A stretch of DNA of 40,736 bases, taken from Jimgerdemannia flammicorona (taxonomy: Eukaryota). The position numbers and the translations under genes are program-made. The notes beneath the pieces were generated by a model that was not told the DNA's origin, ran no database searches, and saw only the letters and a list, made by a program, of their open reading frames with translations. The stretch is from the NCBI GenBank assembly GCA_003990765.1, contig RBNJ01000118.1, forward strand, positions 1 through 40,736, given 5' to 3'. Numbering within the stretch: the stretch's first letter is position 1; the number at the start of each line of letters is the position of its first letter. This document shows positions 4,100 through 40,577 of this stretch, piece by piece.

Positions 4100-4132
4100 A
4101 GAGAATATACTTGATATTATACAATTTTTGTT

Positions 4133-7620: not shown

Positions 7621-8091
7621 AGAGTTAGAGTTAGGCTTCAAGTAAGAGTTTGTTTATAGTAAATAAGATAAGATATATTGGAGCAATAAATAGCAAAAAC
7701 TTCTAAGATAAGAAAAGGAAAAGTAGTCCAGGCTATTGTGAGACAAGAATACCTTAGCTAGGCTAGAATATAAAAAGCAAAAAGAGGCCAGTGAAGTAAA
7801 CAACTAGCTAAGAAAATCAAACAAAGACCATAGAGGTGACTACTCTATAGATGGGCTAAATAAATCATTTTGTTATAGCTGTAAAGAAAATAAATACAAA
7901 AGCAAAAAAAAAGAAAAGCTAAGATAGAATATTCAAATACCCAGCACCAACTATAGAAATAATATTGACACCTAAATGCCAAATAACTAACATGAGATAT
8001 ACATATAACTCAATGGGCACTCAACAATAAGGAAACCAATCAAGGTGAATAAGGAGAGAGAAAGAAATAAAGAAAATATATGATCACTCAA

Positions 8092-11000
8092 TTACTCAAG
8101 TATCTTCATAATCTCAGTTAAACAAAACCCAACTATAAGGTGGCCATCAGAATTATATATAGCATCAATAGTGTGGTAGGCTGTCTCATGATGAGCATGA
8201 AGAGGGTAGGTGTGAAGTTCTTCCTACCATTCATTATTAATAAACCAATTGAGCTATTCATTATGATCAGAATTATCTTAGAAAGTAGAATATAAACTAT
8301 TAAGAAGACTATACCTAAGGAGATAGTCATGATGAAACTTATCTTTACGGAGGCAGAAGAGCAAAATTGGCCAAAGTAGCCTTAATGCCAGGTAAGTACA
8401 GAATACACAAGCTGGGGGAGGAAGGTGAGGACATGATCAGCTCTTCTTGCCCATAAATAGCCTTTAGGAGTAATATACCAAATGAGGGCCTGAGAGGAGG
8501 AGGCCCATTTCTGCAATAGTAGGTTTCAGAGAAATAACTAGAGGAAGGAGCAGAGTAAGTGAGTCTTGCAGATCTAGAGACAGAGGTCTCAGTACCAGTT
8601 GAGGAAGTCAAGCCAATGCCAGAACTTATCAATAATAGAACCTGGAAGATATGTGACAAAGTACTTACTAAGAGGGCTGATGGAGTTGTTGCCAGACTTG
8701 CTATACCAATTTAGATAGACTTATAACATATAGTAGAGGTCCAACATACAATAAAGGAAGGAAGAGAGACCAAGAATCAAACTACCAAGCAGAGGCTGGC
8801 TAGAAAATCCAATTGCCCAAGTGACAGTATTATCAGTGACCTTCTCAGAATACTTCAATATATAAAGCTCCATAGTAGTAGCTGGACAGAAAGCTTATAG
8901 AAGTAGAAGGCCATACTCCAGCTGAGGCCTAATGAAGATATATATAATAGTCAGCTTAACTATTGGAGACCAGAGGGGACCATAGGTATGGCAGAACTCA
9001 AGAGTTCATTCTGTCTTTACTACATTCTGCACTGTAAGATTAACAAAGTCAAATCCTTTATTAATATATGGTATGCCCAGATATATTTAGGAGAGTGGTC
9101 AGGCAGGGCTCTCTCCTAATCAGGACAGTACAGTCAGCAGAGCCAACATAACTACACTTCTTGGGGTTGAGTTTCATACTATTCACTGAGAGCCAATCCT
9201 CACAAAAGTCAATCATTCTCTGTCCTTTTGCAGCAGTGTGGGGGGTGAGAGCAATATTGTCAGTAAAGAAAAACCCAAAAGAAAAGTCATACTCCATAAA
9301 CTACTCATCAAAGGAGGTGGTAAGGGGGTCAATGAATATATCAAAGAGGCAAAGAGAGAGGAGAGAGCTCTGGAAGAGACTATGCTCAGTGGGGACTAAG
9401 GGGTGACAAGGCTATTAACAATCATCTGATAGAAACAATGGTTAAACAGACTTTAGATAATACTAAGGAGAGCTGCATCAGCTCCTTGCACCTTAAGTTA
9501 GAAAAGAATAAGCTTGAGGAGGACTCTAACATATGTCTGCTAGAGGTCAAGAAAGACATGGCAGCCTCATCTCTTAGCTAATATCTTATATGAGAGCAAA
9601 ATATAGGAAAGTGACAAGAAGTGGGTTTGGAAGCTAGCTTGACAGTAAGACATTTCAGTCAGACTACTTCAGCTCTTGATATAATCTTCCAAGCACTACT
9701 CAAAGAGTCTACAAAATATCTTTATAAGTGTGATCTGATGAAACCTATCAATTGTCCAGGATTTCTCCTAATTGGAGAATGTGGAAATAATGGTAGAGTT
9801 CTAGTTGTAGGGAGTGAGCCCCCAGACCATGGCTTTCGACAGACTATGGAGAGTATCCTTCTTACCTGCCATCACCCAAAGGATCCCAACATATAAGAAG
9901 TCAGCTCTACAGGCCTTTGTGAGGGGGTACCTATAGATGGCCCTCTAAACTGCAGGCTGGTCAAACCAGAACTGCAGCCCAAGAGCTCCTACATCAAGAG
10001 AGAAGATGTCCTCAGAGTCATTAAGATGCAAGGAAGCCTTCAGCTAGCAGAAGATAGTGGTAAAATGAGCAATCATATCATCAAATATAGAGAAGTAAAA
10101 TTGAAAGAGAGTGGGGGAGATAGAGCAGTATACTCACTTAAAGCCATGGATGATATTGGAGATCAGCAATGTACTGTAAAGGAGGTCCTGCCATAGTAGT
10201 GGTGCTGCCCTGATTTCTCTAGCATTATATGAGCCCAGAATGTCCTCACAGACAGACTATAGACCAGAGGTCAAAAGGGAGTCAAGGAAATCCACAAACT
10301 ACTGGTAATCTTCCATAGGGTAAAAGCCAGTGATGTGGTCCCAGATGGAATATATGGACCTGACAATGATATTACAAATGATATCTACTAATTTCCAAAG
10401 ATGAGCTTGAATGACCAGATTGGTCAGATAATTTGCAGAGTAATAGTAGATACTAGACAAAGTAGTAACCAGTAAGGGAGAGAAGGAGAAGGAGAGAGTA
10501 AGAAGAGAGGGGTGGTTGGTGGCAACAGTGGTGGTATAGCAGGTGAGGGATACATGAAGGGATACAGTGATAAATACATGATCAATGTATATAAGACCGG
10601 CCACTGGAGTCAGGTGGTTTAATAACTACATAATCAGAGAGATATCAACAATATCCATTTTATTCCAAGGACTAGAGTTGATGTTATCAAGATAGATACT
10701 AAAGTAGATATTAATGTTACTGATCAAAAGAGCCTTAGTCAGGAAGGGACCAGATATAAGATTACAGAATCCACTAATAGGAAGAGAGGGGGGGACATAT
10801 ATCCTAAGTAAAGCCAGACCCTGAAACATGAGTTGGATATGGAAGAGATCAGTAGAAGATCTAAAAATAAGTAGTACCAAATAATTTAACATAAGGACTA
10901 TGAGACTACTATTCTGGTGACTTACAATTCTGTATAATGCTAGAAGAGAAGACGTATGAATGAGCAGAGAGGGATATAGTAGAATATGTCATATTCTATA

Positions 11001-11096
11001 TATGAAAAGAACATCAAGTGCAGGACAAATCAACTGACTGAGTATATTGAACTTATCCTGAGTTAGTCTATATACATTGAGAAACCTGACTCTCAT
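8092..11096 (-). pseudogene. B1 ORF2: APE + RT + C-terminal CxC..H..C knuckle, about 1000 codons
   Basis: Starts MRVRFLNVY (compare B3 VGFLNIHGL), then IYVPPS, YIDHVF, FFTDNIAL, MKLNPKKC; ends KILE-stop at 8092-8094. Confidence 0.85.
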
Positions 11097-12585
11097 TGTG
11101 GGCCAGGCATACTAGCACTAACAGCATGAGAAGCACCTGAGGAGAAAGTCTCAACTTTCAAATCCATCACCATCTCCCCTGTCATAGTAATAGTACCACC
11201 TGTCTTTGACCAATAGGGGGGTAAGAGAGGAGAAGTGAGGCCAAGTTCTACAGCCCATATCTTATAGAAGTTCAGCAACTCAGACCTCTTTACAGTAGCA
11301 TTGATAGCTAACCACTGGACCTGAGCATAGAATGATTAGAGGACCTATACCTTCACAACCTCTATGGCATTCTTGTTTCAGGGGAGTATAGGGTCCTAGG
11401 CTGAGAGCATCAAGAACCTGAGTACCTTCATCTTCTTTTGGAATACCATGATATTATTAGAGTGCAAAAGAAATTTAATAGTTAATACCAAAATGTATGA
11501 CATATTAAAGACCTTGGACAATATCACATAGATATTGTATAAGTTCTTCTAGATTGTCTCAATCTTAAGATGAGGAAATCAATCAATATAAATATACTGC
11601 AACCAGACACCTCTCTTAGATGGTGATAAATGAGAGGTTAGCTTGTGGGTTATATATAAAATTACTATAATAATGGCAGCTCTTTCCATCTCAGAATAAG
11701 CCTAGGTCCTATCCTTGATAAAAACCTTCTTATCAGTAGTGATATATAATTTAGAGAAGGTGAGAGTCAAAGCATGAGATGAAGATTGAGCAGTGGTACT
11801 GAGTCCCATAGGTGTAGCCTGAGATACTGATACAGGGGCCTTGCTTTTGCCCTTTTTAGAGAGTGCAGCTTTACTGGCCAAAGGTGCTGCTGTGAGAGTT
11901 ATCTCCTTTGATAGTATACCAGACTGTGATACAGTAGCTTTAGCAGCCTACTTATCTATTTAATTCTAGGCTTTAGATTACATATTTGTGGCAGGACTAG
12001 TAAGAGGGAGGGCTGAAGACTTGGGGGGAGTAGATATAGATAGGACAGTGGGGGTACTTTCCAAAGGAGTACTAGATGATATAGGAGTAGTGGGTACCAA
12101 TTATACAGTGAGTCATACTATTAGCTGAGTACTAATCTTAGCCAAATTGGTCACTTAAGTCAGCAGATCTGAGATCTGCTTCCTCATTATGGCTATCTTC
12201 ATAACCACATCAGAGTCAGCTGAGGGGACTATAGGATCAATAGTCAGATTCATTCCCAAACTAATATTTAGATAGCTATACTTATTCTGATTAATAGATA
12301 TAGGTATGGAAGAGAATATCAGACACTGGATATCATGGTCTAAATCAGAAGAGATTGTGATCTCTTCATCATCTTCTGTATCATGCAGAGAAGATAAATA
12401 TACCAATATTAGTCATATGTATATCTCCATATAATCTGCACATCACCATAAGATTATCCTTACTGAAGTTGAGGGAAAGGAGACCAATATCATAACATTT
12501 AGCTTAGTGGAGAGAATCACTGAAGTATATGAAGAGGTGGGTGGTATTTGAGTTATTGCTAATAATGGAAGAGGTGGCTGATATT
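11093..12585 (-). pseudogene. B1 ORF1 remnant
   Basis: Collinear with B3 ORF1: acidic DTEDDEEI segment, coiled-coil-like RKQISDLLT, Pro/Thr/Ser linker, ends PGPQ-stop. Start position approximate. Confidence 0.7.
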
Positions 12586-15582
12586 GCCAAATTAGATAAA
12601 GGTAGGTTTGTTTATTTGTTTGAAATTATAAAATATTAGTCATATGACCTTTGTTTGTTTAATAAAAAAATAATAAAGAAGGGGGTATTTATATCCAATG
12701 AGAGGCTTAGCTAATCAAAGTGACTGCTTTCTTAATTTGGAATAGCTTGGGGTCATAAAGCTAAATCTAGTCAAATAGATATGTTGTGTAAGTGGCTGAG
12801 GTTAGAGTTAGGCTTTAAGTAAGGATTTATTCATTATAGAGGAGATAAGATATAGCAGAGTAACAAATAGCAAAGACTCCTAAGATAAGAAAAGGAAAAA
12901 CAGTCCAGGCTATTATGAGATAAGGATTGCTTAGCTAGGCCAGAATGTAAAAAGCAATAAGAGGCCAGTAAAGTAACCAACTAGCTAAGAAGTACAAAAG
13001 AAAGGTCATAGAGGTGATCACCCTATAGATAAACTAGATAAACCATTTTGTCATAGTCATAAAGATAATAAATGTAAAAAGCAAAGAAGAGAGAAGCTAA
13101 GATAAGATATAGAAATACTTAGCACCAACTATGAGAATAATATTAACACCCAAATACCAAATGACTAATATGAGATATATAACTCAATGTACTCTCAATA
13201 ACAAGGAAATCAATTGAGATAAATAAGAGAAAAGCAAGAAATAAAGAAAATATACAATTGCTCAATTACTTAAGTATCTTCATAATTTCAGTCAGATAAA
13301 ACCCAACTATAAGATAGATACTAGAACTATACATATTATTAATAGTATAGTAGGCTGTCCCATAAAGAGCATAAAGAGAGTAGGCATGAAGTTCTGCCTG
13401 CTATTTATTACTGATAAATCAATTAAGCTATCTATCATAATTAGAATTATCTTGAAAAGTAGAATATGAGCATCAAGAAGACTGAACCTATAAAGATGGT
13501 CATGATAAAACTTATCTCTATAGTGGCAGAGGTAAGATTGGCCAAAGTAGCCATAATACCAGAAAGAGCAGAATGTACAAGCCACAATAGAAAGAAGAGG
13601 ACATGATTGATCCCTCTAGACCATAAGCAGCCTTTGGGGGTAATGTACCAAAAGAGTGTCTGGGAAGAAGAGGCCTATTCCTGAAGCAGCTGGTCCTAAA
13701 GAAATGACTAGAAAAAGAAGCAGAGTGAGTGAGTCTTATAGACCTGGAGATAGAGGTCTCAGTACTAGTCAAGGAAGTCAAGCCAGAAAGTCTAATGCTG
13801 AGACTTGTCAATAATAGAACTCAGGGGATGTATGATAAAGCACTTGCTAAGGAGGCTGATGAAGTTGTTACCAGAATTGCTACATCAGTCCAGATGGGCT
13901 TAGAACATATAGTAGAGGTCTGATATATAATGAAAGATAAAGGAGAGGCTAAGAATTGAACTATTAAGTAGAGGTCAGCCAGAAAACCCAACTGCCCAAG
14001 CAATAGCATCATCAAAGACCTGGTTGGGATTCTTTAACACCTGAAGCCCCATAGTAGTAGCCAGATAGGAAGCTCATAGAAGTGAAAGACTGTACTTCAG
14101 CTAAGGCCTAATGAATATTCATATAATGGCCAGCTTAACTTTTAGTAACCAGAGAGGACTATAGGCATAGCAGAACTAAGAGTTCATTCTGCCTTTACTA
14201 TATTCTACAATACTAAACTGATAAGTCAAATCCTTTGTTGGTATATAGTACATATGTCTAGGTATATAGAAGGGGGGTTGTGAACAGGGATTGCCTCTAA
14301 TTAGTATAGTAGAGACAGCAGGGCTGAGATAACTACACTTCTTATGATTGAGCTCTATACCATTTACTATGAGTCAATTTTCATAGAGGTAAATCATCCT
14401 CTATCTCTTTGCAACAGTATAGGAAGTGAGAGCAATATCATTAGCAAAGAAAAGCCCAAGGGAGAAGTTACACTCCTTAAATTGATCATCAAAAGAGGAG
14501 ACAAGAGAGTCAATGAACATATCAAAGAGCTAAGGAGAGAAGAGGGAGTCCTGAAAGAGGCCACACTCAGTGGAGACCAGAGGGATAATAAGGCTATTAA
14601 CAACTATCTAATAAGAACAGTGATTGAAAAGACTTCTGATGATGCTGAGAAGAGCTGCATCAGTAATGTCTTAAGCCAGGAAAGGATGGGCCTGAGGAGG
14701 ACTCTATCATATGCCTGCTAGAGGTCTAGAAAGATATGATGGCTCTACCTCTTGGCCCACATCTCATACAAAAGCAAGACATAAGAAAGAGATAAGAAGT
14801 GGGTTCAGAAGTCTTCTTGGTAGTATGACATTTCTGTTAGGCCACTTCAGCTCTTCCTATAATCTTCCAAATACTACTCAGAGAGTTGGTGAAATATCTC
14901 AGTAAGAGCAATAGAGTGAAACTCATCAATCATCTATAACTTCTCCTTCCTTGAAGTCAGAGAGATAATAACAGAGTTCCAGCAGTTAAGAGTGAGTATA
15001 TACAACTGAAAGAAAAGAGACATGGCTTTCAAAAGACTATAGAGAGCATTCTTCTTTCCAACCATCACCAAAAGGATTCAGACATATAAGAAGTCAGCCC
15101 TATAGGCCTTTGTGAGAGGATAGCTATAAATAGCCCTCCAAACTACAGACTGGTCAAACTAAGACTGCAGTCCAAGAGCCCTAACACCAAAGGGGAAGAT
15201 ATCCTCAGAGTCATCAAGATATATATAAGAAAGTATTCAGTTGACTGAAGATAGTGGTGAAATGAGCAACTATATTATCAAATACAGAGATAGTAGAGGA
15301 GTAGAATTGGAGAAGAGTGAGAGAAGTGGAGTAGTATACTTGCTTAAAATTATAGATAGCATCAGAGGCTAACAATACATTATTAAGGAGGTCCTGCTGT
15401 GTGAGCAGTACTGCCACAATTTCACTTGCATACATGAGCCCAGAATGTCCTCACAGATAGACTGTAGACCAGAGATCAAAAGAGAGTCATGAGATTGCCA
15501 CATCTTTCACTGGTAACATTTGGGTGATACAAAACTCAGACAACACTTTTCACTATGTTTTTGGTGTCTGATAACTATCAAC

Positions 15583-17493
15583 ATAGATGGCAATGATCAA
15601 ACTGGTGAGCATACTGACCAGGAGGGTGGCAGTGCCTTTGGCTGGCAGCAGGTGGGAAGGAGGGGAGATGGTTTGGAGATGCCAGGGACCTCAATGGCTA
15701 GCCGAGGCCCTAGTGGGGGAGGGAGGGGTGGTCTGAGGCAGAGAGGAGGAGAGAGGTCGACCTTTGCTGATAAGGTCAGAATGGGGAAGATGGCCTCTGG
15801 TCTGGATGGTTGGCTGGGCCTGGGGAAGGCATCGACAGCTACTGCTGGGGGACAGAGAGGTGTGCCCAGGGGAGTTTCAGATGGTAGGAGAGGAGCAGGA
15901 GTAGGGGCAGAAGATGTGACTGTTGATGGGGCTGTAACTGGGGATTTGGCAAAAAATCCAGATGTGACAGTGGTTGACAATTCAGGATAGGGAGTGGGTA
16001 TGAGGCCTGGGGACCTGGCAGATGGAGTGACAGGCATGGTATCAGCCCCATTACTCAAGAAGTCGAGGTTGGAATTTATGGTCACAATGTGTTTCTGGGG
16101 CTTGGTGGTGATGGCAAGGATGATTTTGAGGCTGATGGCACAGGAGGCAAAGGGAGCAGTGTCAGTGAAGTTTTTGAAGAGGAAGGAAGGGGTTGAGGTG
16201 GGGTTCAAGGAGGAAGATGCATTGCTGGCAGCTTTGGAGAAAGGGGTGACAGTTGGTGGGGTTGTGGTCCCTATGGCTAGGTACATGTGCTGAGACCCCT
16301 GAGTGGTGCAGTTGATGGTGTTGGATCTCTCTATGGTGTCAAAGGAGAGGACCAGAGAGTTGGTTGAGGAGGTGATCAAGGAGTATGGCGAGATTGTGGA
16401 TGTTGGGTTCAGGGTCTGGGAGGGTATGGAGCTTCGGACTATTGACGTCAATGTCAGAGTGAGGCTGGCCAGAAAGGAGAATACAGAGAAGTCAAGGGAC
16501 TGGCCAGCAATATTGAGGTAGGGACAGGTGGAGTGCAAGGTCATGAGGGTGAAGGGGATCCAGGAGGAGGAGGAAGACCTGTTGGAGGCTCTGGAGGATC
16601 TGAAAGGGGTGGTTGTGAGGAGGAGATTGGCCTGGAAGGAGTTTGAAGCCAGGACAGTGGTGGGGGAGGTGGATGGGAAGAGGGTCTGGATGGAGAGGGG
16701 GGCCTGGGAGAAGATGCAGGGGAGGAAAATTCAGAAAGAGCTGCTGGCGAAGTTGGGTGGGGGTGGTGCTAGTGGAGGCTCAGGAGAGGGGGTTGTGGGA
16801 TTGCAGGAGAGCACCTGGGCTGAGGGGGGTGAAAGGGCCTGGGGTGGGGCTCGGATTGGAGTGAAGGAGGAGAGGGAAGGCAATATGGAGGCAGATGTGG
16901 AAATGAGTGACAGTGTGCGCCCTCAGTATAGTGTCCCAGGTGGAGTGGAGGGGGAGGAGGAGCTGCTGGATGTGCCGGATGAGGAGTGGGATGAGTCAGT
17001 AAGAGGGAGCATGCTGGTGGACCCTGAGGTGGATGGGGGCCAAATTGCTCAGGGTGTAGTAGAGGTGGTGGATAAGGAGAAGTAGATGTGGAAGACCCTG
17101 GAAGGGGTAGTAGCAGAAGAGCTGGGGGGAGAGGATTTCAGGGTTATGGAAGAGAGGCATTGGGAGGAGATCCTACAGGGGGAGGAGGTGCCAAGGAAGA
17201 TGAAGAATGAGATCCTGGCTATTCTCCTGGAGTTGGTGGAATATCAAGTTGATGATCAGAGAGAAGAGAAGCTTAGGAGGATTGTGAGTGACAGGGCATT
17301 ATATTTGTGGAACTCAAGGAAGGGACTGAAGAAGTGGCATGCTGTCGACTATCAGTCAGAGATGGCGATAGTGGACAGAGTGGAATGTCAGGAAATCTTG
17401 GAGGCACTAGATGCTCAGGCTAATGCAGAGGGTGACTTAGAAGCTGAACAGTGCTTGTATCTGACTGGGGATGAGATGAGCATGAAATACTAG
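15583..17493 (+). pseudogene. A3 ORF1 remnant
   Basis: ORF-track pieces 15520-15990, 15994-16293, 16303-16521, 16528-17085 and 17086-17493 are in one frame, separated by in-frame stops. Confidence 0.85.
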
Positions 17494-17523
17494 GCTGGGG
17501 TTGCTATTGCAATATTCTTCAAT

Positions 17524-20500
17524 ATGAATAGTACAACTAGGATATTCTCTTTGAACATAAATGGGTTGCAGGGGGCAGCTAGGAGGCAGAATATATTAGG
17601 ATAGCTTAAGGGACTGGATGTGGATCTCTTCTTGTTGCAGGATGTTCATTATGAGGCAGATGTGGATTTACAGGATTGGACTAAGGAATGGGGGGGGGCA
17701 GCAGTATAGAGGGGGAAGGTGGGTATTCTCATGTAGAAAGGGATGGAGGACATTGGGGACATTGGACATTGGGGGTCTCAGGTGGTGTAGGGAGTGTGAA
17801 AGAGACCTGGATGGGGCTTGCTGACAGTGGGGTCTTGCTACTGCCCAGCTGAGAGAGGGGAGAGGGTGGATTGGATTCACAGGTTGAAAGAGGGTGGTGT
17901 TTTGGGAGAGGTTGGGTTGGACTACATGGGGTGTGATTTCAACATGATATGGGATAAGGAGAGGGATAGAACTGATGGAGGGAGAGACATGTAGGGTGAA
18001 AGTTGTGGGTTGAGTGACTGGTTGGAGACAGAGAGGTTGAGATCTTTAGTGGACTCAGGAAGACAGTTCTAGGGCAATTGGAGGGTGTACACTCACTGGG
18101 TGGCAGGGCTGGGCTCCAGGATTGACTGGGTTTTGACAGTGGAGTGTTGGGGAGCAGATGTCTAGATGGTGCTGGCAGTAGTCTGGTGTCTGTGGTCTGA
18201 TCACTGGGGGCTGCTTGGAGGGGGGAGGTTTGGGGGAAGAGAGGATAGGCCTGGACATTGGTGGCTAAATTCTTCCTTGTTGGAGGATAGGGCTTTGTGG
18301 GAGGGTTGGGAAACAGAGGTTGTGAGGAATGTCTGAAGGTGGTGGGAACAGGGCCTGGAGATTGGAGACCACTGGAGGAGACTGAAGGTGAATGCTCAGG
18401 GATATTGGAAGGAGGCAGGGAAAGGAAGGTGTGTTCAGCAGTGGCGGCAGGTGCTGTGGGCCTCACGGCATCTGGCAGCACTCATGGGGAGATGGGCAGG
18501 TGTGCTAGAGGATAGGGAGGTGACTAATTGGCATAATGTGTGAATCCGAAAGGAGGTGGAGGAGCTTCAAGGAGTGTTACAAAGAGAGGAAGAGGTGAGA
18601 CTGCAGGGGATAGTGGCCTGACTGCGGTGGCAGAGGCTTGAGGAGGGGGAGAGGCCTACTAGGTTTTTGACATAGTTGTTACAAGTATGACGAATGAAGC
18701 AGCAGTGGGAGGGAGTTCTGGATGCGAATAGTGAGCTGGTAGTGGGGACTCTGGCAATTCTGGGCTTACTGAGGACCCACTGGGAGAATCTGTGGAGTGA
18801 GGAGGAAGGAGGAGTGGATGCCTTAGACATTGAAAGGCAGCTGGGGGATTGGCACCCAAACTCTGTGATAGGCCTCAGGGCCTTGGGGGACCTAGTGAGT
18901 GGAGAGGAAATTTGCAAGGTTGTGGCCTTGGTGAGTAAGGGGACAGCTCTGAGAGAGGATGGACTTCCCTGGGATTTCTGGAAGAAGATGACTGGGGTGG
19001 GAGAGGTGTCAGAGGAAATGACTGCTATGTGTAATGAGGTTCTTCAGTCTGGTGCTTGGATTGGGGGCCAGCACCTAGGGCTAGTCTCCTTGCTCTATAA
19101 GAATAAGGGGAGACAGGAAGATCAGAAGACCTGGCAGCTGATCATGCTACTTGACATGGACTGCAAACTGGTGACAAAGATCTTGGTGATGAGGCTGTAA
19201 GGAATTGCTCAGCAGGTGCTTGGGGTAGAGCAGCGTGGGTTTGTCGGTGGCTGGTTGATTCATGATAGGACAGCTTGGGTACATAGAGTGATTGAAGGTG
19301 CCCAGGCTATAGGGGTGGATGGCTGGTTGGTATTTCTGGATCAAGAGAAGGCATATGATAGAGTGTGGAGGATTTGGCTGGAGGGAGTACTGAAACAGAT
19401 TGGTATCCCCCTGGGATTCTGAAGATCATTGATCAGCCTTTTGGAGGACAGTCAGGCAGTATTGGTCATTAATGGCCACAGGGGGGTGACCTTTTCCCTG
19501 GGGCACAGGGTGCCGCAGGGAGACCCCTTGTCACCCATATTGTATGCCCTCTCCTTAGAGCCCCTACTGAACAAGATTCGGCATCAGATTGGGGGTTTGG
19601 ACATTTTAGGGATTCATTGGAAGATGGGAGCCTTTGCTGATGATATAGTGGTCGGGCTGGGCTCCTTGATGGATATGGGGGAGTTACAGAGGTTGGTGGA
19701 ATAGTATGAGGGGGGTTCTGGTGCTAAACTAAACTGGTACAAATGTGAGACTTTGGTGCTAGGTGCTGGAATCATTGGGGGTGATGTTATTGAGATAGTG
19801 GTACTGGCTAGTAAACCAGTGCATTATTTAGAGATCTACTTCTCAGTGTTCAGATCTCTTCTTTCCCGTGTATGGTGGAATCGACAACTCCTGAAGTTGG
19901 GAAATGTTCTGCTGTGATGGGGAGGTCAGCATATGTCCCTAGCCAGAAGGGTGATGGTGCTGAATGTGTATTGGATGCTGAAGCTGTGGTATGAGAGATA
20001 TTATTTGAATTTCCCACCCTGGGTGGTCAGGGGGCTGTTGAAGATGGCGAGGTCATGGATCTGGGGAGGGAAGTGAAGCCAAGTGGGTTGGGAGGTACTC
20101 ATACTGCCTGTGGAAAGAGGTGGGCTGGGCTTAGTTGACTTTACTAAGCAGCTTCACTGCTTGAGAGCTTGGTGGTTGAGGAGGGTGAGTGAGCTGAGGG
20201 GCCAGGAGTGGGTGCCAGTCATGCAGAGGGTGTAGGAGGCTCAGTATTCCCCTCATAGTGACTCTGGTGACCTGCTTGTGATGGTGGCCATGGATGGGAG
20301 CAGGAAGATGAGGTTTACAGGCTTCTGGGGGGGAGTGGTGGATGGTGCTAAGGAAATTGGACTCCAGTGGTGGGGTGATGAAGCCGAGGAGGATTGGGGA
20401 CCACAGATGTGGTGGTGGGACAGACTTCTACTGGGTGGTGTTCTGGTGGAGGATTTTCAGCTTGGCGAGGGTGTGGAGTGTCTGCAGGGATTGGGTGGAG

Positions 20501-26859: not shown

Positions 26860-29800
26860 TTAGATTAGGCTTCAAGTAAGGATTTATTCATTATAGATAA
26901 GAAAAGTACATTAGAGTAATAAATAGCAAAGACTCCTAAGATAGAAAAGAGAAAAGGCAGTTAAGGCAAAGCAGTCCAGCTTGTTGCAAGATAAGGATGG
27001 CTTAGCTTAACTATAACACAAAAAGCAAAACAAGGCCAGCAAAGTAAACAACTAGCTAAGAAGAACAAAACAAAGGCCAGAGAGATGACCACCCTATGGA
27101 TGGGCTGGATAAGACTGTTTTATCACAGCTATAAAGATAATAAATACAGGAAAAAGCAAAGAAAAGTGGGGTTAAGATAAATTACACAAATGCTCAATAC
27201 TAACTATAGGAACAATATTGATAACCAAACATCAAATGACTAAAATGAGATGTATATCTCAATGTGCTTTCAACAACAAGGGAACCAATCAAGGCAAATG
27301 AGGGGAAAGAAAGAAGTAAAGAAAATATGCAATCACTTAATCACCTAAGTATCTTTGTAATCTCAGTCAGACAGAACCCAACTATGAGATATCTACCAGA
27401 ATTATATATAGCATTAATAGCATGATATACTGTCTCATAAAGAGGGTAGGCACAAAGCTCATCCTGCTATTCATTATTGGTAAACCAGTCGAGCTGTTCA
27501 GCATGATCAGAGTCACCTCAGAATGCAGAGTAAGAGCTATCAAGAAGACTGCACAGAGGAGATAGATATGATGAAACTTATCTCTACAGAGGCAGAGGTG
27601 GGGTTGGCCAAAATAGCCATAGAACTACACATGTGTAGAGTATATAAGCCAGGAGGGAAAGGAAAGGACATGGTTGGTACCCCAAGACTGCAAATGTCCT
27701 TTGGGAGTGATATACTAAATGAGTGCTTGGGAGGAAGAGGCCCAGTCCTCGAGCAGCTGATCCTGGAGAAATGATTGGAGAAAGGCATGGAGCAAGCAAG
27801 TCTTGTGAACCTGGAGATAAAGGTCTCAGTACCAGTCAAGGAAGTCAAGCCAAGAGGTCCAATATCAGAACTTATCAATAATAGAACCTAGGGGATATAT
27901 GACAAAGTGCTCACTAAGAGAGATGATGGGGTTGTTGCTAAACTTGCTACCCAATCCAGATGGGCTTGGAACATGCAGCAGAGGTCTAATGTGTGATGAA
28001 GGAAAGAGAAGAGGCTGAGAATCAAACTGCCAAGTAAGGGATGGCCAGAAAACTCAACTGCTCAAGTGACAACATTATCAAAGACCTGCTTAGGATGCTT
28101 CAACACCTAAAGCCCCATAGTAGTAGCTGGGAAGGAAGCTCATAGGAGGGAGAGGCCATACTCTAGCTGAGGTCTGATGAATGTCTATAAGATGGCCAGC
28201 TTGACTATTGGTAACCAGAGGAGATCATGGGCATGGCAGAACCCAAGAGTTCATTCTGCCTTTACAACATTCTATAATGCAAGGTCAATAAAGTGAAACC
28301 CTTTGTTGGTATACAGCACACCCAGGTATATATAGGAGGGGGGTCATAGGTATGGCTTGCCCCCAATCTGCACAGTATAGTTGACAGGGCCAATATAACC
28401 ACACTTCTTGAGATTGTGTTCCATACTATTTGCCAAGAGCCAATCTTCACAAAAGACAACTATCCTCTGCCCTTGTATGGTAGTGCAGGGAGTGAGAGCA
28501 ATATTATCAATAAAGAAGAGTCTGAGGGAAAAGTCATGCTCCTTAAACTATTCATCAAAGGAGGCAGTGAGGGGGTCAATAAAGACATCAAAGAGCCAGA
28601 GAGAGAGGAGGGAGTCTTAGAAGAGGCCATGCTCAGTGGAGACTGAAGGAGTGAAGAGGCCATTAATAATCACCTCATAGAAATAGTGGTTGAACAGGCT
28701 CTGGATAACGCTAAAGAGAGCTGTAACAGAACCTTGTACCTTAAGCCAGGAAAGAATAAGCTTGAGGGGAACTCTATTATATGCCTGCCAGAGGTCAAGA
28801 AATATATAGTGGCCTCACCCCTTAGCTCACATCTTGTGTGAGAGCAAGACATGAGAGAGGGATGAGAAGTAGGTTCAGAAGTAATCTTAGTAGTGTGATA
28901 TTTCTGTCAGACTGCTTCAGCTTTTGACATTCCCTTCCAAATACCACTTGAAGAGTCTATGAAATATTTCAGTAAGAGCAATAGGGTGAAATCCATCAAT
29001 CATCCAAGATTCCTCCTTCTTGGGAACCAGAGTAATAATGGCAGAGTTCCAGTGGTGGAGAGTGAGCCTTCAGACCATGCACATCTGGAAGAAAGATAGG
29101 GCTTTGGACAGACTACAGGGAGCATCTTTCTCACCTACTATCACACAAAGGATTCAGACATATAAGGAGTCAGCCCCACAGGCTTTCCAGAGAGGGTAGC
29201 TATGGATAGAGCTCTAGACTGCAGGTTGATCAAACCAAGACTACAGTATAAGAGCACCCATGCTGAAGAGGAAAATATCCTCAGAGTTATTGAGGTGGAG
29301 GGAGATGTTCAGTTGGCTGAAGATAGAGGCGAAGTAAGCAATCTCATCATCAAAAACCAAGACAGTAGGAGAGCAAGATTGGAGGGGGGCAGGGGGTGGA
29401 GCAGTACATATGTATACTTGAAACTACAAATGGAATTAGAGACTGATGATATACTGTGAAGAAGGTCCTGTTAAGGGAGTGGCACTGCCCTAATTTCCCT
29501 TACATCATATAAGCCAAGAATGTCCTCACAAACTAACTGTAGACCTGAGGTCAAAAGGGCATCGAGAGAATCTAAAAATTGTTGGTGATCTTCCACACAG
29601 TGAAAGCCAGCAATATGGTCTCAAACAGAGTAGATGGACCTGACAAAGGTATTATAAATGATATCTGCTGATTCTTAGAGGTGGGCTTGAACCCTTGGAT
29701 CAGTCATATATTTTGCAGAGTAATACCAGATGCCAGTCAAAGTAGTAACTAGTGAGGGGGAGAAGAAAAAGGAGACAGTAAGGAGGGAGAAGTAGTTAGT

Positions 29801-30324
29801 AGCAACAGGAGGAGTGGTGCATATAAGAGATCCATGGAGGGATACAGTGGTAAACACATGGTCAACATATGTGGATCCAGCCACCAGGGTCAGGTAGTTC
29901 AATGACCATATCATTAGAGAGGTATTGACAATATCCATCTGGTCCCCAGGATCAGAGTTGATATCACTAAGGTGGGCACTAAAGTGGGTATTGATGTTAC
30001 CAATCAAAAGGGCCTTACCCCGGAAGGGGCCAGATACAAGATCCTAGAAAACACCAATGGGAAGAGGGAGGAGATGTAAACCCCAACTAAAGCCAAGCTC
30101 TGGAATATGAGCAGGATATGGAAGGGGTCAGTAGAGGACCTGGAAATAAGTGGGGTGAAATGGTTTTACACAAGGACCATGAGACCACCATTTTCATTAC
30201 TCACAATCCTGTATGATGCTAGGGAAGAGGACATGTGAACAAGCAGAGAGGGATATATTAGAATGTTCCATGTTTCATATACAAAAAGAATGTCAAGGGC
30301 AGGATCAATCAACTGACTGAGTAC
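26860..30324 (-). mobile_element. Family B LINE copy B4, 5'-truncated near the start of APE
   Basis: TTAGATTAGGCTTCAAG at 26860. Collinear with B1 ORF2 up to LSQLIDPALDILFVYETW. Followed immediately by AGGGTTAGGG. Confidence 0.92.
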
Positions 30325-30334
30325 AGGGTTAGGG
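30325..30334 (+). repeat. Telomere-type repeat AGGGTTAGGG at the 5' truncation point of B4
   Basis: Read directly: CTGACTGAGTAC|AGGGTTAGGG|TGAAGG. Confidence 0.75.
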
Positions 30335-30476
30335 TGAAGGTTATGGAGTTTAAGCAAAGTTTTGTGCAAGAAATCGACAGAGTTGAGTAATAGCCATCTT
30401 TCTCTGGTAACATTCAGGTTACACAATCTTTTGGCAACACTTTCGACACAGTTTCTGGAGACAAGCTTCTAGTATC

Positions 30477-32518
30477 ATGGCGATCAACGAGCATCCTGAG
30501 GTGCATACTGAGCAGGGTGGCCCTGGAAAATTCAAATGGCAGTAAGTGGGGAGAGGCCCTGGCTTGGGGAGAAGCATGAGGGGCCTGCTGGTGGGAGGAC
30601 GTGGTGGAGGAGGGGGCAGGGCTGGAGGTCAAGGGGCTGCAGGCAGCAATGGGGGAAGATCTGGGTTCCTGAGCTTCGTGGACAAGGTCAAGGGGAGTGG
30701 GTGGCTGGCTGGTAATAGGGCTGGTACTACTGAGGGAAAGGGCAAGGTGAGCCTAGGGAGGGGGGGTGATGCAGCAGCTGGGAGTACAGGAGTTAGGGCT
30801 GGAGGAGCAGTGGCTGGAGGTGTAACTGTTGATGGGAGTGTGACGGGGAATCATGAGAAAAAAAGAGATGTGACAGCTGATGGCCAGGAGGGACAGGGGT
30901 TCCCAATGTGGAAGGGGGACCTGGTGGATGGGGTAACAGAGCTGGCAGTGACCCCATTGCTCAAGAAATCTATCTTGGAGTTCACTGTGACCTTGTGCTT
31001 CCGGGGCTTGGTGGTGATAGCGAGGATGGTTCTGGGGCTTATTTTGAAGCAGGTGGCTGGGGCAGCCTCAGTGAAGTTCTTGAAGGGTCTGGAGGGGGTC
31101 AAGGTGGGCTTTGAGGAGACAGGCCCCCTAGATGAGGTGGTGAAGACTGGAGTCATGGTTGGGGAGGTGGTGGTCCCCATGGTGAGGTGCTTGTGATGGG
31201 ACCCCAGAGTGATGCAACTTCTAGTGAAGGGGGTGCCCACGGTGACTAAAGAGGAGACATGGAAGAGAGTGGAGGAGGTGATGATTGAGTATGGTGATAT
31301 GGTGGACATTGGCTTTCAGGTGTGAGAGGGGATGACAATCAGGATGGGTGATGTTGATGTCAGAATTAGGCTGGCAGGCAAGGAGGCCACGGGGAAGGCA
31401 AGTGACTGGCCTTCTGTGCTGATGTGGGGGACATTCATCTGTAAGGTGTCGAGGGTGAAGAAGAATGAGAAGGAGGAGGAAGATTTGTTGGAGGCGCTGG
31501 AGGAGATGAGTAGAGCTGTGGAGAGGAGGGCAAGGGCTTGGAAGAGATATGAGAAGTTGACGCATCTGGAGGTTGTGGAGGGGGAAGCATATCCACATGG
31601 ACAAGGGGCAGTGGGAGCAGGTGCAGGGGCACAGAAGGCAGAAGGAGCTACTGGTGAGTATGTCAGTAGAGGCAGAGAAGAAGGTAGTTGGGGCTGAGGT
31701 GTCTGGGGGTGCTGAAGCTAGTGTCTGGGCTAGTAAAGGGGTAGAGGAGGTGGAGGTGGGCAAGGAAGGAGATGGCAAGATGCTGAGCAAGGACCCTTTT
31801 GCAGATGGCACCTTTAAGGTCTGGGAGCTGGAATTGGATTCCACCCCCCCTCTGATCAGGAGGGGCCTGGCTGTGAAGAGAAGAGCAATAGAGGATGTGC
31901 TAATGCAGGGGGCCCAGCAAGTGCATTTTGGAGTCTCTGATGTAGCAAAGGGGGGCCATGTGGTGGCAGCTAGTGAGGATGAGCTGGTGGATGTCCCTGA
32001 AGAGGAGTGGGATGAGGCTGCCAGTGTGGGTGCTGACACCACAATGTTGGAGGTGGGCCAGCCTGGAACTCCAGGAGGGAAGGAGGTAGGGAACTTGCTG
32101 TGGATGAGCAAGGTGATAGACAACCTGGCAGTGGATCCATTGAGTGAAGTGGACTTGCGGGTTATGCCTGAGGAGCATTGGGAGTGGATTCTGCATAGTG
32201 ATGGAGTGGTGGAGGTGCTGAGGGGGGAGATTCTTGCAATCCTCATAAAGGAAGAGGGGTATGAGGTCGATGAGGTGAGGAAGGCAGAGCTGGTGGTGGT
32301 TGTGGGCGAGCAGGCAACCTACTGTTGGGCTGAGCATCATGGTTTGCAGTTCTGGAGGGAGGCCTGTCTTGAGTACTGAGAGGATTTTGAGGAGAAAGAG
32401 GATGAGGTGATGGTTGAACTTCTGGGAGGGTTGGAGGCAAGGGAAGCTGGGGAAAAGGAACTAGCTACTGAACGTGAATTGGACTTGGTGCAGGAGGAGC
32501 GGAATGTGGACTTGTAGA
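30477..32518 (+). pseudogene. A4 ORF1 remnant
   Basis: ATG at 30477 is in frame with the 30546-31196 ORF. Gly-rich N-terminus, SFVDKV motif, acidic C-terminal half, a few stops and a frameshift near 31573. Confidence 0.85.
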
Positions 32519-32548
32519 GGATGGGATTGTTTTCTGATATTATTCCTT

Positions 32549-35500
32549 ATGAACAGTACAACTAACATTTTCTCTCTGAATGTGAATAGATTGAGGGGCT
32601 CTGGACATCAGAAGAATATTTTTACTTGGCTCAAGGGATTGGAGGCTGATCTCTTTTTACTACAGGATGTTCAGTGTGATGATGAGAATGATCAGGTAGA
32701 ATGGACTAGGGAATGGGGTGGGGCTACCACTTGGTTTAGAAAGGTGGTGATTCTGGTAAAGAAGGGTAGAGGAGATTTGGAGGGAATCAAGAGCTGGAGA
32801 AATCGCTTGGTCTGGGGTGAATGGTACTGGCCAGGGTGGGAATCAGTGAGGGTGGGCTCTTGTTACTGCCTGGCAGCTAGGGGAGAGAGGATTGCATGGA
32901 TTAAGGAGCTCCTAGAGGAGGGCATTCTCTTGGAGGAAGGGGTCAATGTTCTTGGTGGTGATTTTAACATGGTTCGAGATTTGTGGCTAGATAGGACTGA
33001 TGGAGAGAGGAATGCAGGTGAGAGGAGTTGTGGTCTGGATGCATGGGAGGAGGTGAAAAACCTTAGCTCTTTGGGGGATATGGGCTGAACATGGTGGGGT
33101 GACTCCAGGGTCTATATGCACTGGGTGAATGGCTTAGGGACAAGGATTGACTGGATTCTGACAGCTGAATGTTGGGGTGCTGATGTTTGAAAGACTTTGG
33201 AGGTGGTGTGGTGCCCGTGGTCTGATCACTGGGGACTGTTTGGGCAGGGGCAGTTTGGGGGGAGTGGAGATGGACCAGAACATTGGTGTCTTAACTCCTC
33301 CCTGCTGGCTGAGAAGGAGTTGTGGGATTCATGGGCAGAGGATATCCAGGCAAAGATTCTACTTTGGAAGCGAGAGGGTCTGTCTGTGGGTGTCCATTGG
33401 ATGAGATTGAAGGAAGCTGCGAGGGTCTATTGGGATAGAGCTGGTAGAGAGGCAGGGAGATGGAGGAGGAGGCGAATACAGTGTGCTTCCAATAAGCTAA
33501 GGAGACTGCAGTTGGAGTGGGCGGATTTGCTCACATCTGATGAGGTGGAGGATTGGCAGTTAGAGAGGGTGAAATTGGAATTTGTCGAACTGCAACAGGT
33601 GTTGAGAGAGGAGAAAGAGACTCATATGCGAGGAATGGCAGCCAGGCTATGATGGCAGGGGCTTGAGGAGGGGGAGTGGCCTACTAGATACTTGTCTAGG
33701 CTCCTCAATGCCAGGCAGGTGAGACATTGGTGAGATGGGATCTTGGATGCTGAGGGAGAGTTGGTGCATGGTATGCAGCAGATCCTGAGAGTATTGAAGG
33801 AGAATTGGTGGGGTCTGTGGAGTGAGGAAGAAGGGGGTACTGATGCAGAGGTGATTGGTGACACACTGGAGGAGTGGGAGCTGTTGCAGTTAGAGGGGTT
33901 GGGTGACTTAATCTTACCAGTCCAGGAGGAGGAGATCCAAGGGGTCCTGGCAGCGACTAAGCTTGGGACAGCACCAGGGGAGGATGGGTTACCATGGGAC
34001 TTCTGGAAGAAGATGGTGAATGTCCCTGGGATGCTAGGAGAGATGGCGGCCCTCTGTGACTATGTTCTGCTAAATGGCATGTGGGTTGGAGAGCAGGACT
34101 TAGGGCTGGTAGCCCTATTGTACAAAGAAAAGGGCCAGCATGAGGATTGGAAGAATTGGAGGCTGATCATACTTCTGGATATGGATCGGAAGTTGGTAAC
34201 TAAGGTGATTGTTGCAAGGCTACAGAAGGTTGCTTAACAGGTGCTAGGTGAGGAACAGTGGGGCTTTGTAGGTGGTAGACTTATCAGAGATGGAACTGCC
34301 TGGGTGCATGGCATCATTGAAGGAGCCTGGGCTTGCAGACTGGATGGTAGACTGGTCTTTTTGGACCAGGAGAAGGCCTACGACTGTGTTCACCAGGTTT
34401 GGCTGGGCAAGGTACTGGACAGAATTGGTGTTCCGCCACAGTTTCAGGCCTCTATGTTGAGTTGGTTGGAAGGGAGTAGAGCAGCGCTGATGTGTAATGG
34501 TCACAGGGATTTGGCATTCCCCTTGGAGAGAGGCATCCCTCAGGGGGACCCACTGTCCCCTATTCTTTATGTACTCTCCTTGGAACCTTTGATAGATAGG
34601 ATCTATAAGAGGGTGACTGGGCTTTCTGTGTATGGCATAGAGTGGAAGGTGGGGGCCTTTGCAGATGATATAGTAGTTGGACTTGGATCAGTAGCGGATG
34701 TAGAGGCTCTTTGGGGAATAGTGGAGTGGTATGAGGAACACTCTGGAGTGAAGCTCAACTGGCATAAGTGTGAGACAATGGTGGTGGAGAATAGGCTAGT
34801 GGGAGGGGATGTCATTGGAACAATTATCCCTACAAGAGAAGTAGTGTGGTATCTTGGTATATTCCTCTCTATATATGTATCAGTCCTACCACGGATATGG
34901 TGAGAGAGGAGGGTGAACATTTGGGGGGAGGCTCTAAAAGGTTGGGGGGGTCGTCACATTTCCCTGGCAGGGCAGGTGGTGATTCTGAATGTATACTGGT
35001 TCCCCAAGCTATGGTATGTGGCATATCACTTAGACTTTCCTACTTGAGTGGTGAAGAGGCTGATGAAACTGGCTAGGGATTGGATTTGGGCAGGTAGAAG
35101 GGCCCAGATCAGTTGGGATACTCTTGTTGAGCCAGTGCTTAGGGGAGGCCTGGGTCTTGTTGATTTCCCTAAGTGCCTACACTACCTGTGTGCTTGGTGA
35201 TTGAGAAGGGCTGTTGAGCTACAGGGTGGAGGTTGGGTACCATTGATGAAGAAGGTGTGGGAGATGAGAGTCTCCCCCTGGGGGTCCTTAGGGGATCTAC
35301 TCTCTTTGGTAGGTCTGAATGGAAGCTGATGGCTACAGTATAAGGGCTTCTGGTGGAGAGTGGTCGATGGGATGCACCAGATAGACTTGCGCTGGCATGG
35401 CAATGAGGGGGAGGTGGTATAGGGTCCAGCTATGTAGAGATGGGACTGTCTGCTTCTAGGGGGAGTTCCACTCACTGAGTTTGACATTGGAGATGGTGTG

Positions 35501-36240
35501 AAGTGTCAGTGGTGAATTGGCCAGGATCTCTGGCTGAGTAGTTGGCAGGTGGTGAGGATTGGTGAGGAGTGAGACTGGGCAGAGATCTGGTCTTGGAGCA
35601 CAGAGGTGTGGCAGTGGCTTCCTCCCAAGTTCTGGGTAGTGTGGTGGCAAATATTGCAGAGAAATGTTATGTTGAACTTCTGTGCTGAACATTTGGTAGA
35701 GGGTGGTCAGTTGGATTGTGAGGAGTATTATAATGTTGGACAAGTTGGGGGAGTTGTACAAATGCCGGAACATTGGCTGGGGGAGTGTGAGGTGTTGGGG
35801 GACTTTTGGATAGCTGTAGGGGACTGGCTAGGAGTTGAAAGGAGACCAGATAGAGAGAGAGGTCGCTGGGAAGATCTGGAAACTAGACTTGTAGGAGGTG
35901 TCAGCAATAGGTGGCTTACTGTAGAGTGGGTTGTGGCAGTGTGGGTGGGGTTGGCCAGACATTGGCTCTTTGTTTTTGAGGAGGGGTGGTAGATAGGGAT
36001 ATGGGAGAAGTTGTTGAGATGGGAGGAGTTGGTGGCAGATCTGCTGATGGAGTGGTGGGTTGGATGGAGACCACAAGGTGGGCAACATCACTGACTTGTG
36101 GAAGGGATCTGTGAACAGAGTAGTGGGTGGGTGGAAATGGTGTTGGATAAAGTGGTCTTTTATTGAGAAGGGGTAGGGGGGAGGTGGGGAAGGGGTCCCT
36201 AGGGGGATTGGGTAGAGGTGGGGCACTGTGTATTATATAG
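32549..36240 (+). pseudogene. A4 ORF2 (APE + RT + zinc knuckle) remnant
   Basis: MNSTTNIFSLNVNRL, LLQDV, GGDFN, RIDWIL, SDH, APGEDG, NWRLIILLDMDRKL, FLDQEKAYD, PQGDPLSP, FADD (34658-34669), LGI. End position approximate. Confidence 0.94.
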
Positions 36241-36590
36241 AAGCTAGACAGGCATATTGGTTTAATAAAGGGTGGAGTCCAAGTGACTATAAAAAAAAAA
36301 GAGTTGAGTAATAGCCATATTAGATCATAGAAATCTTTCAAACATCTCTCATTAGACTTACTATTGCTTAAATATTTTTCAATTGTCTATTTCAGACTTA
36401 GCAATTGATTACTGTTGGATACAATGTAATATGAAATTAATCATGAATGAGAGTGAATTACTTCTCAGGTTTCACAATCAGATAGCTTTGATCTACTGAT
36501 CAAATTGTATTAAAATAAAATTTTAATTAAGTTGTAATTATATTACTAAGTGATTTTTCTTTATGATTAGGGTCAGGTGCATCCTACTGA

Positions 36591-37846
36591 TTAGGGGTTA
36601 GGCTTCAAGTTAGAATTTATTCATTGTAGAGAAGATAAGGTACATTGGAGTAACAAATGACAAAGACTCCTAAGATGAGAAAAGTAAAATGAGACCAGAG
36701 AAGTAAACAACTAGCTAGGAAGTACAAAACAAAGGCCAGAGAGGTGACCACTCTATGGATGGGCTGGATAAAACCATTTTGTCATGACTGTAGAGATAAT
36801 AAATGCAAAAGCAGAAAAGAGAAACTAAGATAGAATATACAAACACTTAGTGCCAACTATAGGAACTAGATCAACACCTAAATACCAAATGACTAACATG
36901 AGATAAATAACTCAATGTGCTCTCAACAACAAGGGAACCAACTGAGGTGAATGAGGGAAAAGAAAGAAATAAAGAAAATGTGCAATTGCTTGATTACCCA
37001 AGTATTTTTGTAATCTTGGTCTGGTAGTACCTGATCATGAGGTGGCCACTAGAATTACACATGGCATCAATAGTGTGATAGGCTGTCTCATGAAGAGCAT
37101 GAAGAGGGTAGACACGAAGTTCTTCCTACTATTCATCATTGGTAAACCAATCAAGCTGATCATCTTGATCAGAAGTACCTCAGAATGCAGAATGGAACCA
37201 TTGAAAAGACCATACCTGAGGAGATGGCTATGATGAAACTTATCTCTACAGAGGCAGGGACAGGGTTGGCCAAAGTAGCCATAGCACCAGGCAAGCACAG
37301 AGTGTACAAGCTGGGGGGAGAAGGAAAAGATACAATCAGTACTCTGAGACTGCAAGCAGTCATTGGGAGTGATGTATCAAACAAGAGTTTAGAAGGAAGA
37401 AGCCCATTCCTGAAGCAACTGATCCCAAAGAAATGACTGAAGGAAGGAGTAGAGTAAGCAAGGCTTGTGGACTTGGAAATGGAGGTCCCAGTATCAGTTG
37501 AGGAAGTTAAGCCAAGAGGTCCAATGCCAGAACTTGTCAATGATAGAACCTGGAGGACATATGACAAAGCACTCACTAAGGGGGCCAATGGAATTGTTGC
37601 CAGACTTGCTACACCAATCCAGGTGGGCTTGGATCATACAGCAGAGGTCTGATGTGTGATGAAGAAAAGAAGAGAGGCTGAGAATCAAGCTGCCAAGCAA
37701 GGGATGGTCAGCAAATCTGACCACCCAAGCAACAGCATCTTCAAAGACCTGCTCGAAATGCTTTAATACCTGAAGCCCCATAGTAGTAGCTGGGCAGGAG
37801 GCTCATAGGAGAGGGAGGCCATACTCCAGCTGAGGCCTGATGAATG
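36591..37846 (-). mobile_element. Family B LINE copy B5, 3' ~1.25 kb only
   Basis: TTAGGGGTTAGGCTTCAAG at 36591, 3' UTR, and C-terminal GYFGQPCPCLCRDKFHHSHLLR. Ends at the poly(T) of A6. Confidence 0.92.
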
Positions 37847-39766: not shown

Positions 39767-39767
<1 letters not shown>

Positions 39768-40540: not shown

Positions 40541-40577
40541 ATATGGTCAAAGCATAGTTGGGTATTTGAGCTAGAAC

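Follow-up and report, generated by a model that had tools for sequence, protein, structure and literature searches.

Family B and its 3′ terminus

A 40,736-nucleotide stretch of Jimgerdemannia flammicorona DNA (contig RBNJ01000118.1, positions 1 to 40,736; here called the window) was found by self-comparison to consist of a nest of two families of long interspersed nuclear elements (LINEs), A and B (Table 1). Family A lies mostly on the plus strand and carries a poly(A) tail. Family B is a ∼5.2-kb LINE with two open reading frames (ORFs), has its sense strand on the minus strand and is heavily transition mutated. Five B copies (B1 to B5) share a common 3′ end, while B2, B4, and B5 are 5′ truncated. 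At this common 3′ end, family B carries a short telomere-like tail.

Table 1. Features of the window, with strand and basis of annotation (APE, AP-endonuclease; RT, reverse transcriptase; TSD, target site duplication; UTR, untranslated region)
Feature	Position	Strand	Description	Basis
A1	2040..7624	+	L1-like LINE, target of B1; last ∼150 bp and poly(A) missing	self-BLAST, alignment
B1 tail	7625..7635	-	TTAGAGTTAGG, joined to A1 sequence ending GGGAGAGT	reading, alignment
B1	7636..12796	-	Full-length (5′ UTR, ORF1, ORF2 with APE and RT, 3′ UTR)	self-BLAST, RT Pfam
B2 tail	12802..12812	-	TTAGAGTTAGG, with 5 extra bases TGAGG (12797-12801) before it; adjoins B1 5′ end	
B2	12813..15489	-	3′ part, split by A2	self-BLAST
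A2	15490..21271	+	L1-like LINE with poly(A), in B2; TSD TCAAAAGAGAGTCA at 15476-15489 / 21272-21285	
B2 remainder	21286..21544	-	Continuation past A2, ending at B consensus ∼2270	self-BLAST
B6	21547..21793	-	Internal B fragment, matches B1 8735-8981; tailless	self-BLAST
A fragment	21797..22590	+	Target of B3; matches A3 31090-31894; end CAGAGGG(T)	self-BLAST
B3 tail	22591..22601	-	TTAGGGTTAGG	reading, alignment
B3	22602..26859	-	Full-length 5′ end; ∼0.9-kb internal deletion	self-BLAST, frames
B4 tail	26860..26869	-	TTAGATTAGG; adjoins B3 5′ end	reading, alignment
B4	26870..30325	-	5′-truncated within APE domain (consensus ∼1771)	frames, RT Pfam
Telomere-like tract	30326..30348	+	Degenerate, GGGTTAGGGTGAAGGTTATGGAG; B4 5′ junction, left end of U	
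U	30326-30394 + 36319-36590	.	∼360 bp, AT-rich; between B4 5′ end and B5 tail	
A3	30395..36299	+	Best-preserved A, in U; TSD AGAGTTGAGTAATAGCCAT at 30376-30394 / 36300-36318	
B5 tail	36591..36602	-	TTAGGGGTTAGG	reading, alignment
B5	36603..37848	-	3′ 1.25 kb of B	self-BLAST, frames
A4	37849..39209	-	5′-truncated inverted A; poly(A) (T run ending 37862) adjoins B5 5′ end	
TCTTAGGAGT 3′ UTR motif	7665-7700, 12842-12877, 22631-22666, 26898-26933, 36632-36667	-	Five B copies	
G-rich family A stretches	2040-7614, 15490-21250, 30395-36290 (+); 37863-39209 (-)		Family A	composition

Reading of the plus strand together with the alignment revealed that poly(A), or any A/T run, is absent from all five B 3′ ends, and that TTAG(G/A)(G)TTAGG directly precedes a common CTT(C/T)AAGT terminus in every copy. 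Both points had been made in a preliminary description of this DNA and held for all five copies. The tails are 10 to 12 nt long, equivalent to ∼1.8 telomeric C-strand units (sense strand, CCTAACCCTAA), and are followed by CTTCAAGT in B1 (from 7636), B3, B4, and B5 and by CTTTAAGT in B2; the sense strand of B1 reads CCTAACTCTAA. Departures from TTAGGGTTAGG were restricted to G>A changes, plus one lost and one gained G. In the alignment, the homology of the five copies ends at the tail, and the flanks are dissimilar unless the flank is itself the 5′ end of another B. A 28-nt terminus probe detected 4 copies in the window at no more than 3 mismatches, versus 0 in 100 shuffles; the fifth terminus, that of B1, has more mismatches to the probe, and no further B terminus was found within the window. 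Telomere-like 11-mers were not enriched window-wide (15 matches with up to 2 mismatches versus 17.3 expected); what is nonrandom about them is their location at every B terminus. No long TTAGGG array was present within the 40.7 kb.

Each of the five B 3′ UTRs also retains an invariant TCTTAGGAGT, which lies ∼65 nt upstream of the tail and whose UUAGG was paired with CCUAA of the tail by RNAalifold, although the pairing was weak (-3 kcal/mol) and showed no useful covariation. A search against Rfam gave no match in the window.

Decay of the B copies is dominated by transitions, with 639 C/T and 486 A/G transition-only columns versus 271 others in the five-copy alignment, which agrees with the earlier remark that G>A is the prevailing mutation. 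The changes cluster at CpG and CpA/TpG, a pattern resembling repeat-induced point mutation (RIP) that, together with the fungal relatives, points to a fungal host. A majority alignment of the copies (5220 nt), which served frame finding only, had one frame open at ∼139-1218 (ORF1) and 1705-5007 (ORF2). When the minus-strand frames of B1 to B4 were scanned, Pfam RT matches were obtained for B1, B2, and B4, the last of which holds the best-preserved RT (RVT_1, 8e-6), and none for B3, part of whose RT is missing. Pfam gave no APE match on the B copies themselves, where mutated APE motifs can be read (NIHGL, YETW, GNIN/SNIN, VDH, and TDY/TNH), and single ORF fragments (34 from the B region, 33 from A and elsewhere) returned almost nothing for B.

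A profile was built from 11 in-frame pieces of the window with X at stops, 3 of 14 rows (misaligned C-terminal pieces) having been dropped. It matched 4527 proteins at E≤1e-3 and 177 at E≤1e-30. Full-length matches were ∼1000 amino acids (aa) long and aligned from their first residues, the best (1.3e-88) from its residue ∼2-50. In 33 relatives, comprising 28 near-full-length profile matches and 5 proteins from a further search, the APE residues N10, E36, Y106, D131, N133, H180, and H207 were invariant, and an FADD motif and a C-terminal CCHC were common to the set. A profile of these relatives aligned with residues 6-824 of human L1 ORF2p, through the RT (5e-50), and with L1 endonuclease (EN) crystal chains at 5e-7 to 7e-6. 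The TRAS1 and R1Bm EN chains in PDB gave no match to it at E≤0.01, and a PDB search with the N terminus of P0002 as a single sequence found nothing. Pfam recognized Exo_endo_phos in 2 and RVT_1 in 11 (1e-24 to 1e-31) of 12 profile matches scanned; a Myb-like domain was found in none of these 12. In R1-clade telomere LINEs, such a domain lies between EN and RT. By these comparisons, ORF2 of family B has an AP-endonuclease at its N terminus, followed by an RT and, at the C terminus, a CCHC. The earlier assignment of B as a minus-strand LINE with an APE-type ORF2 is thus upheld by the Pfam RT matches, the invariant APE residues, and the matches to L1 ORF2p and EN.

One match, P0001 (212 aa, 2e-91, on an 813-bp contig), corresponded nearly residue for residue to the EN-RT linker of B and lacked the transition damage seen in the B copies, so this species or a close one may also have intact B copies. 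Among 46 hand-picked rows in a quick RT tree, which held no reference members of named LINE clades, B4 fell into a clade of 18 rows (SH-aLRT 98) that included Calcarisporiella and Sporobolomyces proteins. Its sister group, in which Exo_endo_phos_2 and RNase H domains occur, held the Penicillium, Fusarium, and insect rows, and the B clade stood apart from the L1-like rows. In this small tree, B belongs to a fungal clade separate from L1; fungal LINE clades named in PMC4427930 are Tad1, Deceiver, and Inkcap. A profile scan of genome contigs yielded 34 loci, all distant LINE contaminants in metagenome-assembled genomes with 22-33% identity, which were uninformative on 3′ junctions.

Tail origin and mode of insertion

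B1 is inserted in A1 ∼150 bp before the expected position of the A poly(A). The same site reads GGGAGGGT-AGAGGT... in four other A copies, and the B3 site reads AGAGGAT-GTGCTAATG in A3 and A1, the two A copies that clearly align there. Since TTAGGGTTAGG is missing from these empty paralogous sites, the final 10 to 11 nt came with B, and comparison of the copies indicates that the 10- to 12-nt tail is borne by the element in place of poly(A). That the tail is foreign to B, being either target DNA that was already telomere-like (the situation of TRAS in TTAGG arrays) or a product of telomerase acting at the nick, is very improbable. The B1 target in A is indeed telomere-like (GGGAGGGTAGAGGT in paralogues), and a few bases of the B1 tail could be target derived. 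Such an origin is contradicted by the paralogous A copies at both sites and by the near-equal tail length in all five copies across four different flanks.

Homology to A extends to GGGAGAGT at B1 and to CAGAGGGT at B3. At both insertions, GAG(A/G)GT ends the A sequence directly before the tail, so that the telomeric register is continued, and GAGGT also precedes B2. The motif [AG]AG[AG]GT occurs 65 times on the plus strand of A1 to A3 (∼0.38% of sites) and 6 times on the minus strand. At this frequency, its presence at two of two A insertions is unlikely to be due to chance, even when its post hoc definition is allowed for, and its strand bias would explain why B lies antisense to A.

Chains with tails at the joints were seen twice, as B1-B2 and as B3-B4-U-B5-A4. 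In the former, full-length B1 is joined at its 5′ end to the five extra bases and the B2 tail; in the latter, B3 is joined at its 5′ end to the B4 tail. The B1 and B3 5′ ends read ...GTGAGTGGC and coincide to the base in the alignment. Transversion distances (B3-B4, 0.030; B1-B3, 0.047; B2-B4, 0.051) identify B1-B2 and B3-B4 as two separate dimers rather than copies of one. Duplication of a single dimer within a ∼14-kb unit was considered and rejected, as the 3′ flanks and 5′ extents differ and B3 pairs with B4.

We regard it as likely, with a probability of roughly 0.6, that B is an APE LINE with a CCCUAA-type RNA end whose reverse transcription is primed at a pairing G-rich 3′ end, and that template jumping or repeated addition gives rise to the chains. 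The B transcript would end in a CCCUAA-type sequence, and target-primed reverse transcription (TPRT) would start where a G-rich DNA 3′ end, ...(G/A)AGGGT, pairs with this RNA end, the alignment of RNA on primer resembling that of a telomerase template. B would land on telomere-like half-sites, which in the window are offered by the G-rich LINE A sense strand, and these half-sites would fix its orientation. The RT would then tend to move on to another RNA 3′ end, or the next copy would join the 5′ end of the previous one; by either route, copies would line up head to tail and every joint would carry a tail. Such priming would also be feasible on G-overhangs or true TTAGGG arrays, for which the window offers no example. 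The preliminary description had proposed that the B RNA end anneals to a TTAGGG 3′-OH. Pairing with a G-rich 3′-OH fits the two A insertions, which follow GAG(G/A)GT. Telomere targeting by B is plausible but unproven, as the five B copies compared are all from this window, which holds no long TTAGGG array.

The A sequence expected downstream of the B1 and B3 insertions is absent, and the 3′ ends of B3, B4, U, B5, and A4 all face left. To the right of the truncated B4 lies GGGTTAGGGTGAAGGTTATGG, which contains one of two occurrences of GGGTTAGGG on the plus strand. These features would suit terminal addition or healing, in which B RNA pairs with a telomeric G-overhang or an eroded G-rich end and is copied without a nick, an alternative that we consider rather unlikely. 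With the same low likelihood, successive additions would in that case have left the window as a subtelomeric fossil array, the former telomere lying to the right. In all five B copies, and in A4 too, the 3′ tail faces left; B1-B2 and B3-B4-U-B5-A4 are head to tail with variable 5′ truncation; the A sequence downstream of both B insertions is missing without any TSD, while A2 and A3 do have TSDs; a degenerate telomere tract follows the truncated 5′ end of B4, and GGGTTAGGG occurs no more than twice on the plus strand. The layout also matches that of Zymoseptoria tritici family 4, in which the tail faces away from the telomere (PMC4522978). A long TTAGGG array is nevertheless lacking throughout the 40.7 kb, further DNA of ordinary composition continues to the right, and the tails are a near-constant 10 to 12 nt rather than variable tracts. 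The APE catalytic residues are kept in the family, for which a purely end-primed element would have no need, and tailless B6 and the opposite-sense A fragment inside the chain call for extra events. A bolder form of this idea, entertained only tentatively, is that B acts as a portable telomerase template whose CCCUAA-ended RNA is copied onto telomeric overhangs or eroded G-rich ends, leaving fossil terminal arrays here. No more than a tentative suggestion, likewise, is that the arrays A1/B1-B2 and A-fragment/B3-B4-U-B5-A4 could have grown by repeated end healing, with the RNAs of U and A4 captured.

In many LINE families, such as the I factor and CR1/L2, short repeats take the place of poly(A) at the 3′ end. 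Like B, I factor and CR1/L2-type LINEs have a short templated repeat in place of poly(A), and their priming is aided by a few matching target bases; in B, by contrast, the repeat is the telomere repeat itself. B could thus be an ordinary LINE with a short simple-repeat tail and no functional link to telomeres, its chains and flanks having arisen by template switching and rearrangement in RIP-hit repeats. The B targets seen are nontelomeric, and the region is visibly rearranged. We nonetheless judge this explanation improbable, because an exact 11-nt telomeric register at the very terminus is not expected by chance, the motif before both A insertions continues the same register, and a telomere-like tract is also present at the 5′ junction of B4.

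Several observations weigh against the preferred reading of B as an APE LINE primed by pairing at G-rich 3′ ends. The target motif, whose definition followed inspection of the junctions, precedes 3 of the 5 tails, with no such bases at B4 and B5; the A copies are 63-67% identical, so the exact junctions are uncertain by a few bases. No B insertion (B1-B2, B3-B4, or B5) has a TSD or an intact downstream target, and ordinary two-nick TPRT is thus not demonstrated for B; later rearrangement may account for the absent TSDs. Between the two chains, tailless B6 and the sense-oriented A fragment count against a simple story. The RNA 3′ end is deduced from DNA copies, "telomeric" here means likeness to TTAGGG, and the fold predicted for the aligned 3′ UTRs is weak, as noted above. 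The sample comprises five B copies, all heavily mutated and in one window, and their surroundings are LINE A sequence, U, and B 5′ ends, not TTAGGG arrays.

Comparison with known telomere-linked elements

A close likeness in the tail is to Z. tritici subtelomeric family 4, a 3.4-kb family with 1 to 3 TTAGGG at its 3′ end and tandem truncated and full-length copies, interpreted as an endonuclease-less Penelope-like element (PLE) (PMC4522978). Like B, this family and the PLEs Athena and Coprina carry 1 to 3 telomeric hexamers at the 3′ end; tandem truncated and full-length copies and uniform orientation are further shared traits, and for these elements, too, the RNA end has been proposed to pair with a G-rich 3′-OH. 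These elements differ from B in being 3.4 to 3.5 kb long, PLE-like, and described as lacking an endonuclease, and their subtelomeric location is established, which is not the case for B (PMC4522978). B, unlike telomeric PLEs, is 5.2 kb long and has an ORF1 and an APE-RT ORF2 aligning end to end with L1 ORF2p.

The fungal telomeric LINEs MoTeR and Cnl1 have been placed in the CRE/REL clade (PMC12857005), in keeping with their designation as restriction-like endonuclease types in the preliminary description. MoTeR, FoTeR, and Cnl1 resemble B in having fungal hosts, telomere repeats at their ends, head-to-tail arrays, and RIP decay; they differ in their restriction-like endonuclease, in their position within telomere tracts, and in the 3 to 7 repeats past their 3′ end (PMC12857005). 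CRE/REL LINEs encode a restriction-like endonuclease downstream of the RT in a single ORF, an organization not seen in B, which instead has an N-terminal APE, an ORF1 frame, only a C-terminal CCHC, a fixed ∼1.8-unit tail, and, in the window, nontelomeric flanks.

In the preliminary description, telomere LINEs with an APE were given as insect R1-clade elements. This proved too narrow, as the telomeric LINEs listed in PMC10088271 and PMC7265360 comprise TRAS, SART, Tx1-1_ACar, Zepp, Gil elements, and HeT-A/TART, of which Tx1-1_ACar, Zepp, and HeT-A/TART extend the range (PMC10088271). TRAS and SART (Bombyx, R1) and Tx1-1_ACar are, like B, of APE type and linked to telomeric repeats, and for them it is important to the start of reverse transcription that the RNA 3′ end pairs with the target; unlike B, they have poly(A), and their insertion point is a fixed base of the (TTAGG)n or (TTAGGG)n repeat (PMC7265360; PMC10088271). 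No R1-type fixed-base insertion in telomeric arrays was seen for B in the window, where its flanks are LINE A, U, and B 5′ ends. HeT-A, TART, and TAHRE of Drosophila share with B a head-to-tail arrangement, variable 5′ truncation, and the absence of a TSD, and their chains have 3′ ends towards the centromere; they differ in their oligo(A) tails, their telomerase-less host, and a chromosome-end location that is proven (PMC5537684). Hebe, also an APE LINE, is subtelomeric and has poly(A) (PMC2861651). In the open literature, no APE LINE with a telomere-repeat tail was found; Repbase, Dfam, and subscription journals were outside that search, and prior cataloguing of B is not excluded.

Telomere-repeat tails have been reported on endonuclease-less PLEs and around REL-type fungal LINEs, and both groups are read as steps between retroelements and telomerase. 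If such a tail is also borne by an APE LINE from a different clade, telomere mimicry would have been reached by a third, independent route. B would offer a simple system in which to weigh RNA-primer pairing against endonuclease specificity in LINE target choice, and would also bear on the healing of chromosome ends by LINEs in organisms that keep telomerase. Even if merely dispersed, B would remain a clear case, provided by nature, of microhomology between tail and target in TPRT.

Family A and remaining features

In A3, an AP-endonuclease (32465-33085; Pfam, 7e-6) and an RT (34238-34900; 4e-20) were recognized, together with poly(A). Clean TSDs were found in both testable A copies, of 14 bp in A2 and 19 bp in A3; none was seen for A4. 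Relatives of A are L1-like with a zf-RVT domain; those with a named source come from Rhizopus, Mucor, and Agaricales, at identities of at best 32-35%. Truncation of B2 at 15489 was rejected, since A2 is inserted there with its 14-bp TSD and B2 resumes at 21286.

The sense strand of family A is extremely G-rich and C-poor (G, 0.30-0.39; C, 0.12-0.14), with A4 as the mirror image. A mutational skew of the whole strand was rejected, because purine richness tracks the strand of each element and the inverted A4 is C-rich on the plus strand. The read-through of A3 ORF2 contains 7.9% Trp and 10.8% Gly, compared with 1-3% and 3-8%, respectively, in relatives, and most of its stops are TGA.

U was rejected as part of A or B, as its local alignment scores were no better than those of shuffles, and no second copy was found in the window. 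Its edges are the telomere-like tract on one side and GATTAGGGTCAGG...CTGA beside the B5 tail on the other. U could be a short nonautonomous retroelement carried in the chain.

A 42-nt A run at 39768-39809 on the plus strand ends an unclassified stretch (39210-39767), probably a further retroelement with poly(A). Beyond 39809, the DNA is of ordinary composition, CpG included. At 40578-40736, ∼8 copies of an 18/36-bp tandem repeat, ACCTTGGAGGTCGGCGGA, run off the end of the window; they lie in an open minus-strand frame (40377-40736) that had no Pfam match and may belong to a repetitive host gene. A further, AT-rich 18/36-bp tandem repeat at 1450-1556 is located within the spacer from the A0 poly(A) to A1.

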